Shown one piece after another: positions 12,693 through 44,851 of a stretch of DNA of 64,000 bases; the stretch's first letter is position 1; every line of letters starts with the position of its first letter. This DNA is from Escherichia coli (GTDB taxonomy: Bacteria; Pseudomonadota; Gammaproteobacteria; Enterobacterales; Enterobacteriaceae). The position numbers and the translations under genes are program-made. The notes below the pieces were generated by a model. That model was given only the letters and a program-made list of their open reading frames with translations. It had not been told where the DNA came from and did no database searches. The stretch lies in NCBI RefSeq assembly GCF_003334405.1, contig NZ_QOWM01000002.1; one strand, 5' to 3'.

Positions 12693-12734
12693 AACTCAAT
12701 CCTTAGTCTGATGAACTTGACGTCGGGCGTTGTC

Positions 12735-12870
12735 GCTTTCACTTGCCTTTCGTTTCATTTCACTTGGTGATGTCTTTCGTTGATTAAAATCTATAGAAAA
12801 GAAACTGAAAGTTCAATGGAGAAAAAAGAAATAAAACGAAATTTGTGATCGTTGAAAGAAAAGATAAAGG
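12735..12870. promoter_or_regulatory. AgaR operator-like repeat cluster upstream of agaS
   Basis: Repeated ctttcgttt / aaacgaaa-type motifs (ctttcgtttcatttc, tctttcgttg, aaaacgaaattt, gaaagaaaag) read in sequence; same motif family as in the kbaZ-agaR region. Confidence 0.45.
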
Positions 12871-12884
12871 AAGCAAAAGGGATT

Positions 12885-12970
12885 GCTGGATGCGGCGCAA
12901 ACGCTTTATCCGGCCTTGCGGTCACCAACTGTAGGTCGGATAAGACGCGTTAGCGTCGCATCCGACACCG
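12885..12970. repeat. REP/BIME element (two inverted REP units)
   Basis: gctggatgcggcgcaaacgctttatccggcc... and gtaggtcggataagacgcgttagcgtcgcatccgacacc match the E. coli REP consensus. Confidence 0.8.
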
Positions 12971-13042
12971 CTGCACAGATCAAAACGAAAGAAAAAGAAA
13001 GGCCTTACGGGGGAAGTGAAGGCCCAATAAAGGAGCAAACTA

Positions 13043-14176
13043 TCAAAACGAAGCTAATTGACCCTGAATCCAGATTTGTTGCACATGTAGCCCGCTATCC
13101 AGCGCAACGACGCTGGCGCGTTTGCCCGGTTTAAGCGATCCCAGAACACCATCAACACCCAGCATTCGCGCCGGATGCAGCGACGCCATATGGATGGCTT
13201 CCGCAGGCGTTACGCCCGTCAACTCGACCATATTGCGCACTGCCGCATCAACAGACAGCGTACTGCCCGCCAGCCCACCAGACGCGGTACGGACAACGCC
13301 ACCGTGCATCTGCACTTCTTCACCACATAACGTATAGCGACCATCCGGCATCCCAGCTGCCTGCATCGCGTCGGTGATCAGTACGATTCTCTCTTTCGCA
13401 CAGCAACAACACAGCGACATTGCCGCCGGATGCACATGATGACCATCGGCTATCAGTTCCAGCCAGGCGCGCTTGTCCGTTAATCCCGCGCCAACCATTC
13501 CCGGTTCGCGGTGATGTAAACCTGTCATCCCGTTATAGCAATGCACCAGGCCGTCGGCACCAGCATCAAATGCGGCGCGGGTTTGTTGCCAGGTCGCCGC
13601 GCTATGCCCCAGCATCACCCTTACGTTTTGCTGTTTAAGATGGCGGATGGCCTGCAATGCCCCTTCTTTTTCCGGTGCCAGCGCTACCACACGTAAGGTG
13701 TGCTGAGAAACGGCAATCAACTGATCCAGCTCGGCAATTTCAAGCTCGCGAAACAACTCCGGCGGATGCGCGCCTTTATTCTGCGGCGTGAAGTACGGTC
13801 CTTCGAGATAACTCCCCAGCACTTGCGCACCAGGTCCGCCGCGTTGGCAACGTTGAGCAATACGTTTCAGCGCCGCATGAATGGTATTAAGCGGCGTGGT
13901 TACGGTGGTCGGTAACCAACTGCCGACACCTTCGCGTGCCTTGTGCATTGCCAGCTTGTCGAGTACATCCGGCGCGTCATCCATTACATCAACGCCCGCA
14001 CCACCGTGTACATGGGTGTCGATGTAAGCAGGGCAGAGCAGTTCCGCATCGCGTTCAGTCACGCCCGCTGGAATCGGTTCGATTGCTGCGATGACACCGT
14101 CAGCAATACGCAACTGATGGTCATCGAGCCATCCCTCTTCAGTCAGCAGCCTTCTGGCGCGCAGAACGTGTGTCAT
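13043..14176 (-). CDS. agaA: N-acetylgalactosamine-6-phosphate deacetylase, full length
   Basis: Track ORF trimmed to ATG at 14176 (MTHVLRARRLLTEEGWLDDHQL...), NagA-like amidohydrolase motifs (…YIDTHVHGGAG…). Its ATG overlaps the agaF stop as ATGA. Confidence 0.85.
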   Translation of the reverse strand: MTHVLRARRLLTEEGWLDDHQLRIADGVIAAIEPIPAGVTERDAELLCPAYIDTHVHGGAGVDVMDDAPDVLDKLAMHKAREGVGSWLPTTVTTPLNTIHAALKRIAQRCQRGGPGAQVLGSYLEGPYFTPQNKGAHPPELFRELEIAELDQLIAVSQHTLRVVALAPEKEGALQAIRHLKQQNVRVMLGHSAATWQQTRAAFDAGADGLVHCYNGMTGLHHREPGMVGAGLTDKRAWLELIADGHHVHPAAMSLCCCCAKERIVLITDAMQAAGMPDGRYTLCGEEVQMHGGVVRTASGGLAGSTLSVDAAVRNMVELTGVTPAEAIHMASLHPARMLGVDGVLGSLKPGKRASVVALDSGLHVQQIWIQGQLASF

Positions 14177-14607
14177 ATTCCTTCCTCGACCGGACATTCT
14201 TCATGGCAGCGGCCTAACTCGTCCACCAGACTGGTCAGCCCTCGGTGTCCACACTCCAGCGCCTGTACACGGAATTCTTCACCGCTTAACCCTTCGCGCT
14301 CCAGCACCATCTCCAGTAGCAGTTGCAAATTGGTGCCGGTGATCACTTCACAGCCCGGTTTTTGCATCGCCAGCGTTGAAGCTACGCGAAACGGCGTGCC
14401 GCCCAGCAAATCCGTCAGAAAAACAATGCCGTCTTCACAATCCAGTTGGGCGATGGCCTCTTCAAGCTGCGATGTAAGCAGCGCGGTGCTTGAGGTTTCC
14501 GGAAAATCGATGGCGATAAACTGCGATTGCTCACCGAGAATTTGCTTCATTGCTTTTTCCATGCCGCTGGCAAACCCGCCATGCCCTGTCAAAATAATAC
14601 TTAACAT
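14173..14607 (-). CDS. agaF: PTS N-acetylgalactosamine-specific EIIA component
   Basis: 144-aa ORF MLSIILTGHGGFASGMEKAMKQILGEQ..., mannose-family IIA. Confidence 0.85.
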   Translation of the reverse strand: MLSIILTGHGGFASGMEKAMKQILGEQSQFIAIDFPETSSTALLTSQLEEAIAQLDCEDGIVFLTDLLGGTPFRVASTLAMQKPGCEVITGTNLQLLLEMVLEREGLSGEEFRVQALECGHRGLTSLVDELGRCHEECPVEEGI

Positions 14608-14624
14608 CTAATACCTCATTGTAT

Positions 14625-15503
14625 TTAAAGGAAATGGCAGAATTTACCGACGATGCCGAGAACCACGGTAACTGCAATCAGACGCAGCGGACTCCAGCCG
14701 CGGCGTACCAACCAAAACATGGTCAGGGTGTAGACCAACGGTAAGAAGGCCGGCATCAGTTTGTCGATAACATCAGCCTGTAACTTAACCACTGCGTCGC
14801 CCGCCGTGATTTCCAGCGTGGTGCTTAAACGAACATAGGTTGCCACCAGCGCACCGATTACCGTCATCCCAACGATAGACGCAGCATGGCCGACTTTTTT
14901 GGTATTCGCTTTAATCAGTGGAATCGCCGCCACGCCCATGCGGTAAGCATAATGCGCCAGACCAAAACGCAGCCCCAGGTGTACCACGTTGAACAGCACA
15001 ATAAAGACGACTGCGCCAAGAATGGAGCCTTGCAATGCCAGACTGGCTCCAATCCCGCCACAAATCGGCAGTAGCGTTAGCCAGAACATTGCATCGCCAA
15101 TCCCGCCAAGCGGCGCACCGACGGCAATTTTGGTGCTCTGAATACTGTTAACGTCCTGCTTAGAACGCTCCATCGCAAGGATAATGCCGATAACAAACGT
15201 CACCAGAAACGGATGGGTATTGAAGAAACCCATATGCCCCTTCATGGCGCGCGCCAGGTCGCGTTTATTAGTGTGGATCTTTTTCAGAGCAGGCAGCAGA
15301 CCGTACAACCAGCCAGAAGCCTGCATACGTTCGTAGTTAAAAGACGCTTGTAACAGCATGGAACGCCAGGCGACGCGGTTGATATCTTTTTTCGTCAGCT
15401 CCGCGCCAATGCTCTGATCTTCATACACGTTTTCATTGACGCCAGTCAGCAATGTTTCTTCGTTTTCACTGACGTTCGGCAGGGTGGTTTGATTAGATGC
15501 CAT
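14625..15503 (-). CDS. agaE: PTS N-acetylgalactosamine-specific EIID component
   Basis: Track ORF begins at a TTG; trimmed to first ATG at 15503 (MASNQTTLPNVSENEETLLTG...), 292 aa; paralogous to AgaD. Confidence 0.85.
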   Translation of the reverse strand: MASNQTTLPNVSENEETLLTGVNENVYEDQSIGAELTKKDINRVAWRSMLLQASFNYERMQASGWLYGLLPALKKIHTNKRDLARAMKGHMGFFNTHPFLVTFVIGIILAMERSKQDVNSIQSTKIAVGAPLGGIGDAMFWLTLLPICGGIGASLALQGSILGAVVFIVLFNVVHLGLRFGLAHYAYRMGVAAIPLIKANTKKVGHAASIVGMTVIGALVATYVRLSTTLEITAGDAVVKLQADVIDKLMPAFLPLVYTLTMFWLVRRGWSPLRLIAVTVVLGIVGKFCHFL

Positions 15504-16272
15504 CTTCAAATTCCTCTTTCTGTGCCGCAGGTTGAGTCGGTTCAGGAGATTTACGCAGCAAGTCGATCAGCGCCATCGCCAGCGCAGCGGCAGCAATAGC
15601 CAGCACTGGTAACTTGAGCCAGGCGGCGGCAACAAAGCCCAGGATGAAGTAGGGGATGTAGACGTTTTTCATCATGATTTTCAGCAGCACGGCAAAACCG
15701 ATTGCTGGCATGATGCCGCCCGCGACGCCGAGGCCGTCGATTAATCGTTGCGGCAGGACATCAATGATGGTTTTTGCATGTTCCGCGCCGAAGTAGATAG
15801 GCAGGAAAGCGCAGAGAAAATAGAAAATGCCGAGTGCCAGCAGTGCCAGATAGTTCACGCGTTCAATGCCGCGAGTATCGGCGTTCTCCGCCATCCGGTC
15901 GCAGCGAGACATCACGCCGGACATCACCGAGAACAGGAAGGTAATCCCCATCTGTACTGCGACAGCGAAAGGTACGGCGACACCTACTGCGACATCGGGT
16001 TTCACGCCAGTAGTAATGGCAAACGCCGTGCCGACGATAGTACCGATAATCACGTTAGGCGGCTGTGCGCCCGCCAGCGGGGCCAGCCCCATCCACACCA
16101 GTTCCAGCGTACCGCCGGTTAAAATTCCGGTATGCAGATCGCCAAGTACCAGCCCGACCAACGGGCCGAGGACCACCGGGCGGTGCATATGGGTTAGGCC
16201 GTTAAACATATCCAGGCCAGCGATAAAGGCGATAATGCCCAACGCAAATGCCTGCAACAGGCTGATTTCCAT
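15493..16272 (-). CDS. agaW: PTS N-acetylgalactosamine-specific EIIC component, full length
   Basis: 259-aa hydrophobic ORF MEISLLQAFALGIIAFIAGLDMFNGL...; paralogous to AgaC. Confidence 0.85.
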   Translation of the reverse strand: MEISLLQAFALGIIAFIAGLDMFNGLTHMHRPVVLGPLVGLVLGDLHTGILTGGTLELVWMGLAPLAGAQPPNVIIGTIVGTAFAITTGVKPDVAVGVAVPFAVAVQMGITFLFSVMSGVMSRCDRMAENADTRGIERVNYLALLALGIFYFLCAFLPIYFGAEHAKTIIDVLPQRLIDGLGVAGGIMPAIGFAVLLKIMMKNVYIPYFILGFVAAAWLKLPVLAIAAAALAMALIDLLRKSPEPTQPAAQKEEFEDGI

Positions 16273-41540: not shown

Positions 41541-41644
41541 GCCGGATGCGATGCTGGCGCATCTTGTCCGGCCTACGGGTTGTTTAATTCGTTAATGTTG
41601 TTGGATTTTGTAGGCCGGATAAGGCGTTTTCGCCGCATCCGGCA
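41541..41644. repeat. REP/BIME element
   Basis: gccggatgcgatgctggcgcatcttgtccggcctac and inverted gtaggccggataaggcgttttcgccgcatccggca. Confidence 0.8.
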
Positions 41645-43949: not shown

Positions 43950-44190
43950 AAAAACATCCCTTTAATTAAAAGTGACGAAAGTCTATTCCGGGTATTGTGT
44001 AAATGCTATTCGTATCTTTCTTTTTCGGATGTTATAAAGGTTTTGATATTTAAGATAAATACATGGTTATTTTTTATAGGTAATTTATATAACGACATTG
44101 AAATATTTTAAATAAACATTAGTAAATTATTCATTCATCAACATAATGATAAAAGCCGGATGAGTCAGACATCCGGCGAGCAGATTTGTT

Positions 44191-44556: not shown

Positions 44557-44697
44557 TTTTGCCTCAATTTTGCTCAATCACTTGTTTTTAAAGCAGCAAA
44601 TTAAGAATAGACGTGAATGAAATGGCAGTAAATATTCGTTCAAGGAATTAATAAAGTGCCGTGAAGGCGCGCTAAGACTGATGACAAGCGCAAAATC

Positions 44698-44798
44698 GCC
44701 AGATGCGCTACGCTTATCTGGTCTGCGCGGGTTATGCAATCTATTGAATGTACAATGTTTTGTATGTCAGATAAGGCGTTCATGCCACATCCGACATG
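44698..44798. repeat. REP-like palindromic units
   Basis: cgccagatgcgctacgcttatctggtctgcgcgg and gtcagataaggcgttcatgccacatccgacatg resemble REP half-sites. Confidence 0.5.
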
Positions 44799-44825
44799 AA
44801 CAACATGCACTTAGCTAATTATCAG

Positions 44826-44851
44826 AGGCACCTCGTAAGGTGCCTTTTTTT
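44826..44851 (+). terminator. Plus-strand-oriented intrinsic terminator overlapping the yqjG stop codon
   Basis: aggcacc-tcgtaa-ggtgcct hairpin followed by seven T residues on the plus strand; both flanking genes are on the minus strand. Confidence 0.5.

Follow-up and report, generated by a model that had tools for sequence, protein, structure and literature searches.

Ordinary REP/BIME elements at average density in a 64-kb Escherichia coli window, and a possible duplication of terminator hairpins around BIME-1

No intergenic repeats of E. coli are better known than REP sequences and the BIMEs they form; the mechanism of their dispersal is still called unknown (PMC3333891). The K-12 genome carries 355 annotated REP loci (bioRxiv 10.64898/2026.03.23.713779) and about 600 REP units (PMC8266576). 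Published roles of the family concern mRNA stability and supercoiling (PMC3333891, PMC6379681, bioRxiv 10.64898/2026.03.23.713779). REP hairpins in 3′ UTRs can protect the upstream mRNA and cause partial termination in a context-dependent manner, with a large context-dependent variance and no general effect on half-life (bioRxiv 10.64898/2026.03.23.713779). The L linkers of BIME-1 bind IHF (PMC3333891, PMC3184786), and gyrase cleavage occurs at BIME-2 Y units (PMC6379681). Published work presents BIME-1 as an all-or-nothing element and other BIMEs as variable in length (PMC1187871, PMC3333891); in the literature, BIME-1 is held to occur as single copies. The related REPIN-RAYT systems have been treated by Nunvar 2010 (PMC2817692), Bertels and Rainey 2011 (PMC3116915), and Ton-Hoang 2012 (PMC3333891). 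Models of the REP transposase involve no target duplication and place integration beside an existing REP (PMC3333891), and a review describes REPs as lacking the signatures of MITEs (PMC3184786).

We analyzed a 64-kb stretch of the E. coli chromosome from lpoA to fadH, hereafter the window, which is 99.96% identical to K-12, at 99.92-99.98% against MG1655, and runs opposite to MG1655 coordinates 3,294,667 to 3,232,860. It differs from K-12 in two respects, namely an intact aga cluster and 2.5 instead of 3.5 copies of a 113-bp repeat after rnpB. Gene positions were taken from the ML35 record, which is near-identical to the window except for the number of 113-bp repeats. A palindrome scan combined with direct reading identified ten REP units in five BIME loci, comprising two BIME-2-type Y-S-Z2 pairs, one atypical Z2-linker-Y pair, and two 153-bp BIME-1 elements (Table 1). 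The degenerate Z1 unit at 44699, whose stem contains GCCAGATG, escaped the palindrome pattern and was recognised by direct reading. Beyond these five loci, the window holds two short hairpins with the REP stem only and one possible decayed pair. The RefSeq annotations of MG1655 and ML35 list no repeat features, and an Rfam scan of the window returned RNase P RNA only, Rfam itself containing no REP family. An earlier sequence-only reading had placed four BIMEs in the window; its coordinates proved right to within 1-3 bases, and its account of them as REP-family sequences arranged as BIMEs was borne out, as were the gene contexts it named. The roles it suggested for them, in mRNA stability and supercoiling, match those published for the family.

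Table 1. Positions of REP units, BIMEs, associated hairpins, and related arrays (window coordinates unless a locus label is given)
Feature	Position	Strand	Remarks
Y-type REP, agaA-agaS	12885..12918	+	Head CTTG instead of CTAC; covariance model 47.8 bits
Z2-type REP, agaA-agaS	12931..12966	-	CTAC head intact; 2 mismatches to consensus; 51.8 bits
Candidate strongly decayed inverted REP pair, garR-garK	25114..25181		11.6 + 9.2 bits, opposite strands
Left decayed terminator-hairpin copy adjoining rnpB BIME-1	26996..27014	+	AAACCGTTCCGGCGGGTTT
Full-length BIME-1 downstream of rnpB (rnpB-yhaC)	27015..27163	+	nhmmer 152.6 bits, profile positions 1-153
Y REP of rnpB BIME-1	27041-27074	+	Preceded by A motif
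L linker of rnpB BIME-1	27075-27109		Putative IHF box ATTCAATATATTG
Z1 REP of rnpB BIME-1	27110-27138	-	Followed by B motif
Right decayed copy of the same rnpB terminator hairpin with T tract	27164..27186	+	AACCCGCGTCAGTGAGTTTTTGC
Z2-like REP, cyuA-yhaL	41541..41576	+	Covariance model 47.6 bits; fold z = -2.7
Head-to-head linker, 33 nt, cyuA-yhaL	41577..41609		Weak likeness to BIME-1 L linker
Y-type REP, cyuA-yhaL	41610..41643	-	57.7 bits, best copy in window
yhaH intrinsic-terminator-like hairpin	44155..44177	-	14.4 bits, E = 0.11
Decayed full-length BIME-1, yqjG-yhaH	44673..44825	-	nhmmer 118.9 bits, profile positions 3-151
Z1-like REP of yqjG-yhaH BIME-1	44699-44727	+	Head mutated
Y-like REP of yqjG-yhaH BIME-1	44762-44795	-	Head mutated; L linker carries ATTCAATAGATTG
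yqjG terminator hairpin	44826-44845		Adjoins A-motif end of yqjG-yhaH BIME-1
Y-type REP, rlmG-higB	62137..62170	+	Covariance model 57.0 bits
S linker, 15 nt, rlmG-higB	62171..62185		Joins Y and Z2 into BIME-2 unit
Z2-type REP, rlmG-higB	62186..62222	-	Mutated head CTGG; fold z = -4.35
21-nt hairpin after higA	63142..63162		GCCGGATGC-GTT-GCATCCGGC; fold z = -5.15
Tandem arrays, BIME-1 or BIME-1-like	L036 789-1641; L035 11552-12425; L039 5435-6156; L019 6933-7527		

The ten units are almost certainly ordinary members of the E. coli REP family (Y, Z1, and Z2) arranged as BIMEs: two BIME-1, two of BIME-2 type, and one atypical. In fuzzy consensus searches, REP matches in the window were confined to the flagged BIME places; a degenerate Z2-type consensus matched twice against 0.00 expected, and the 14-mer head half CTTATCCGGCCTAC matched seven times against 0.24 expected, a number reached by none of 100 shuffles. 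When the ten units were made into a covariance model and the 64 kb was searched with no filter, the same ten came back at 37-58 bits. Below them stood the hairpin after higA at 18.2 bits (E = 0.01) and the yhaH hairpin at 14.4 bits (E = 0.11), followed by noise at 14 bits or less, and this gap indicates that the window contains no further good REP copies. Across the alignment of the ten units, the G/GATG/TTATC blocks were invariant or nearly so, the hairpin was paired in 98.1% of cells, and four pairs were changed on both sides. The covariation score was reached by none of 500 shuffles, and only 24-42% of cells were paired when the partners were slid by 1-3 columns. Single-strand folds gave the usual stem with the conserved internal mismatch, with z values of the REP units down to -4.6. 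When the rlmG-BIME and rnpB-BIME were used as queries against 5,426 E. coli genomes, they matched a median of at least 29 and at least 39 places per genome, respectively, confirming a high-copy family.

These data also bear on the alternative that the flagged sequences are generic GC-rich terminator hairpins resembling REPs by chance. The two short hairpins at 63142-63162 and 44155-44177 are what speaks for it, given that an 8-9 bp stem is all they have in common with REPs and that the one at 44155-44177 resembles a plain intrinsic terminator. The ten main units, however, match a 30-37 nt consensus for which 0.00-0.24 matches are expected by chance, stand at 37-58 bits with all else at 18 bits or below, recur tens of times per genome, and are in no case followed by a T tract (0/10). 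Consensus, bit scores, and copy number thus refute the chance reading for these ten, and we consider it extremely improbable. The hairpin after higA has the REP stem and lacks the head. In the yhaH hairpin, the stem GCCGGATG/CATCCGGC is identical to the outer stem of REPs, and TTTTATCATT comes after it. The two weak, adjacent hits in inverted orientation in the garR-garK region may be a REP relic. The REP-like units claimed earlier in two further regions fared differently: between yhaH and yqjG there is indeed a complete, decayed BIME-1 (118.9 bits), but after higA there is only the 21-nt, stem-only hairpin.

Returning to the ten REP family members, the GTAG/CTAC head was intact in six and mutated in those at 12885(+), 44699(+), 44795(-), and 62222(-). 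The E. coli REP enzyme needs an unmutated head, with GTAG required (PMC8266576). Because this enzyme tolerates no head mutation (PMC8266576), the four head-mutated units are probably immobile relics. Tandem intergenic regions house three of the REP loci and convergent ones the other two, and the seven divergent regions have none; this placement, strictly extragenic and 3′ of genes, is the known rule for the family.

At agaA-agaS, the Y and Z2 units stand head-to-head across a short linker of 12 nt, which is a BIME-2-type arrangement, and the Z2 unit folds as DNA at -11.5 kcal/mol (z = -4.6). Long purine-rich tracts on the + strand flank this BIME, and the agaA-agaS intergenic region (12693-13042) shows 80-90% identity, with conserved length, in more than half of the E. 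coli genomes. In rlmG-higB, the Y unit starts 15 nt past the rlmG stop codon. Both BIME-2 loci are single pairs rather than arrays. The cyuA-yhaL locus starts with a Z2-like unit 21 nt past the cyuA stop codon and ends with a Y unit (-12.3 kcal/mol, z = -4.4) that stops 9 nt short of the yhaL stop codon. Work by Liang and Deutscher in 2015 reportedly bears on translation-coupled effects of REPs near a stop codon, such as those at rlmG (15 nt) and cyuA (21 nt). In the Z2-like unit, the stem is preserved by a compensatory change from C-G to T-A, and the paired change is seen in the inner stem as GCGATGC...GCATC against the usual GCGACGC...GCGTC. The linker of this locus aligned to the L consensus with a score of 6, compared with 23 and 15 for true L linkers, and the locus matched the BIME-1 profile at 47.6 bits (nhmmer, profile positions 30-129). 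Since it combines Z2, a long L-like linker, and Y, we classify it as an atypical BIME.

We then compared the REP density of the window with that of the genome. Five loci were found in the 64 kb against 4.89 expected (Poisson P = 0.54), and ten units against 8.27 (P = 0.32). The density is therefore the genome average, and the description of these elements as frequent does not hold in the sense of enrichment. This result weighs against the view that the window is a REP-rich hot spot whose REPs drove the aga deletion of K-12, a view that could draw on the BIME located inside the aga cluster and on other indels in the window that do have REP-arm boundaries. The deletion removes window positions ~13602-15896. 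In K-12 its two flanks have 10 bp in common. The window breakpoints carry GGTCGCCGCG and GGTCGCAGCG, and the junction falls in an imperfect direct repeat (9/10), GGTCGC(C/A)GCG, inside agaA (13592-13601) and agaW (15897-15906). No REP motif was found at either breakpoint; the scanned interval 13501-16000 has a single isolated REP-stem 8-mer, CATCCGGC, at 13966, far from both. The deleted segment is free of REP cores, and the REP unit closest to the junction, ending at 12966, is ~630 bp away. A junction that lies in a direct repeat and is free of REPs indicates a microhomology event unrelated to REPs. We thus regard the hot-spot explanation as very unlikely, and the proposed link between REPs and the aga deletion gives way to a clean negative: this deletion was not REP-mediated.

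Elsewhere, a comparison of breakpoints among strains did reveal REP-bounded differences at cyuA-yhaL, rnpB-yhaC, and rlmG/higBA, and in this the earlier proposal stood outside the aga cluster. The cyuA-yhaL region exists as three alleles with one, two, or three REPs, the window carrying the two-REP form. The short allele is 73 bp shorter and retains the Y hairpin only, with its junction in a GCCGGAT heptamer common to both units, and the long allele (IAI1) has 78 bp more, consisting of a second direct Z2 and linker. In IAI1, the two direct Z2-like copies have diverged. Among 30 evenly spaced records, the two-, one-, and three-REP forms accounted for about 1/2, 1/6, and 1/4, respectively.

At rnpB-yhaC, the query was covered by at least 80% in only 3,147 of the 5,426 genomes. 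O157:H7 lacks the BIME-1 entirely and has an empty site with a single AAACCCGCTTCGGCGGGTTTTTGC. Strain G3X16-2 (L012, equivalent of ~27112) carries an IS621-family (IS110-like) element in the rnpB BIME, beyond which homology resumes at the Z1 REP; IS621 is among the elements known to target REPs (PMC3333891). The yqjF-yqjG region has no BIME-1 in the window and does have one in other strains. Matches to the rlmG-higB query ended at the end of the Z2 unit in ~1,060 of 5,426 genomes, and the one checked among these, FELIX_MS724, has no higBA, a difference of ~940 bp (window 62223-63162). The left boundary of this indel is the last 14 nt of the Z2 REP, GCGTCGCATCCGGC, and the right boundary is the 3′ half of the higA hairpin, GCGTTGCATCCGGC. 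The two are direct repeats identical at 13/14 positions, GCGT(C/T)GCATCCGGC, one of which is the Z2 REP tail. In a third group of strains, the 5′ part of higB has been deleted (L010).

The agaA-agaS and yqjG-yhaH regions were constant in length among strains, although their intergenic sequence was unusually divergent. Tandem multiplicity or length polymorphism of BIME-2 was not seen at rlmG and agaA in the sampled genomes; length polymorphism was found instead at cyuA, the atypical locus. The strain comparison is in line with the published presence or absence of BIME-1 and length variation of other BIMEs, and provides concrete examples of REP loci as the places where neighbouring intergenic regions differ between strains.

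The two BIME-1 copies of the window differ in preservation (Table 1). Of the 35 positions in the rnpB L linker, 29 agree with the family consensus, and the IHF-type boxes ATTCAATATATTG (rnpB) and ATTCAATAGATTG (yqjG-yhaH) each have one mismatch to the IHF consensus WATCAANNNNTTR, these being boxes in sequence only. The 113-bp tandem repeat after rnpB (window 26735-27014) contains a terminator hairpin in every unit; against its 2.5 copies, K-12 and ML35 have an extra unit and O157:H7 has a smaller number. It is the terminator of the final, incomplete unit that holds the rnpB BIME-1. A simple terminator scan missed the rnpB-repeat terminators, and hairpins were judged from sequence and alignments.

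BIME-1 copies were gathered blind to their flanks through an exact search with the A motif in one genome per species, followed by nhmmer profiling. All real matches of the A-motif search were in Escherichia. A single 21-mer match in a Clostridia MAG (L021) had no adjacent REP and was rejected; by a size-based estimate, ~0.5 such matches are expected by chance. Abutting direct repeats of 17-24 bp were present at both ends of the element in 8 of 19 non-redundant full-length BIME-1 copies, and five of these were perfect. The flanking-repeat scores were 15-22, compared with a maximum of 4-9 in 200 shuffles. Copies with the hairpin duplication are those at window 26996-27186, L013 1180-1385, L024 1590-1795, and in L016, L026, L031, L033, L036, and L037. 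Every flanking repeat consists of an A, a stem-loop, and 1-3 T, and the full T tract is found only past the right-hand copy. The possibility that the duplicated hairpins are part of BIME-1 itself was rejected, as their sequences differ from locus to locus. The A-motif end always adjoins the upstream hairpin, on its downstream side, so BIME-1 points in the same direction as transcription. The ends of the element are imperfect inverted repeats, with consensus CAGATTGTTGAC / GAGACTGATGAC.

Comparison of empty and filled alleles gave a consistent pattern. For the pairs at rnpB-yhaC, yqjF-yqjG, and ymdF-rutG, a single terminator hairpin is present when the site is empty and two hairpins flank BIME-1 when it is filled; the ymdF-rutG and yqjF-yqjG sites are filled or empty depending on the strain. 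At the gudD-barA locus (L026), no clear empty allele was found in the sampled rows. In L036, there are five tandem units of hairpin plus BIME-1, each of 175 bp. Older copies, among them the two of the window and the one at fepA-entD that is found across species, show the duplication in decayed form or no longer have it. Tandem arrays of BIME-1 or BIME-1-like units were also observed in cryptic-clade Escherichia and E. albertii (5 x 175, 6 x 160, ~6 x 115, and 4 x 148 bp).

Taken together, these observations suggest a MITE-like spread of BIME-1, with integration at the hairpin foot of an intrinsic terminator and duplication of the hairpin as a whole, a reading we favour with reservations and which would add to the family identification above. 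In its favour are the change from one to two hairpins in three empty/filled pairs, the abutting 17-24 bp repeats at 8 of 19 loci (five perfect), the constant position on the A-motif side, the imperfect inverted ends, and the five-unit array of L036. Against it stand the 11 of 19 loci without a clear duplication, including the old fepA-entD copy common to several Escherichia species; the empty and filled alleles may reflect either insertion or precise excision, and the pattern may already be described in the literature. We found no description of hairpin duplication around BIME-1 in the searchable literature, which does not extend to key older papers. The broader proposition, that BIME-1 targets the foot of terminator hairpins, inserting 1-3 nt after the stem in one orientation and duplicating the hairpin, as a rule both general and undescribed, is put forward only tentatively, and on present evidence we lean against it.

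If MITE-like integration does occur, the substrate might be a terminator palindrome that is extruded or single-stranded, with BIME-1 linked to each strand immediately 3′ of the hairpin foot; repair synthesis could then copy the palindrome. Recombination between the two hairpin copies would afterwards lead to precise loss of BIME-1 or to tandem gain. Duplication of the hairpin is not predicted by the existing transposase models, because the single-strand mechanism of IS200/IS605 type is duplication-free. Should the pattern be true, general, and unreported, it would supply a defined, testable target and a junction signature for the 40-year-old question of REP dispersal, and would account for precise 'excision' and for tandem arrays of hairpin plus BIME-1.

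Concerning function, the BIMEs of the window are non-coding, non-autonomous repeats located only downstream of genes. Going by the family literature, their transcribed REP hairpins would slow 3′-to-5′ RNA decay and partly attenuate read-through, BIME-1 DNA would bind IHF at the L box, and the Y units of BIME-2 would be preferred gyrase sites. Their spread and changes in copy number may be due to the single-copy TnpA-REP (REP-associated tyrosine transposase) acting in trans, and also to slippage or recombination between repeated REP arms. For these particular copies, we infer both the functional effect and the responsible enzyme; family identity, a conserved hairpin with compensatory changes, the 3′ extragenic site, average density, and strain variation are established here. 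The flagged elements are thus already known and ordinary, present in average number, and as a finding in the form first stated they carry little weight; the duplication of terminator hairpins around BIME-1 is the one lead that emerges.

Compared with known systems, BIME-1 resembles MITEs (PMC3184786) in its imperfect terminal inverted repeats, its discrete length of 153 bp, its flanking direct repeats, and its empty and filled alleles, but its duplication of 17-24 bp follows the length of the target palindrome, unlike the fixed-length target-site duplication that a DDE transposase makes for a MITE. The likeness to insertion sequences that target REPs (IS1397, ISKpn1, and IS621; PMC1525189, PMC3333891) is confined to the IS621-family element in the rnpB BIME of G3X16-2, where the REP is the target of another element and does not itself move. 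RIP/RIB corresponds to IHF-binding BIME-1 (Oppenheim 1993 and Boccard and Prentki 1993, as reported in PMC3184786 and PMC12306157), of which the copies here show the sequence box. With the REPIN-RAYT systems (PMC2817692, PMC3116915, PMC3333891), they share inverted REP doublets, a long hairpin, a non-autonomous nature, a supposed mobilisation in trans by one domesticated Y1 transposase, and a strain-variable copy number; they differ in that the transposase gene lies outside the window and that, unlike in the REPIN-RAYT models, which involve no target duplication, BIME-1 copies are flanked by a duplicated terminator hairpin. The closest match is the REP/BIME family itself (Gilson 1991 and Bachellier 1994, as summarised in PMC3333891 and PMC1187871), with which the units agree in sequence, length, internal mismatch, head-to-head pairing, L and S linkers, the IHF-type box of the L linker, a location 3′ of genes and outside them, and high copy number, and six of the ten also in the GTAG/CTAC head. 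Measured against the family as summarised there, nothing essential differs, and the copies of this window stand apart only in their four mutated heads, the decayed yqjG-yhaH BIME-1, and the atypical cyuA locus.
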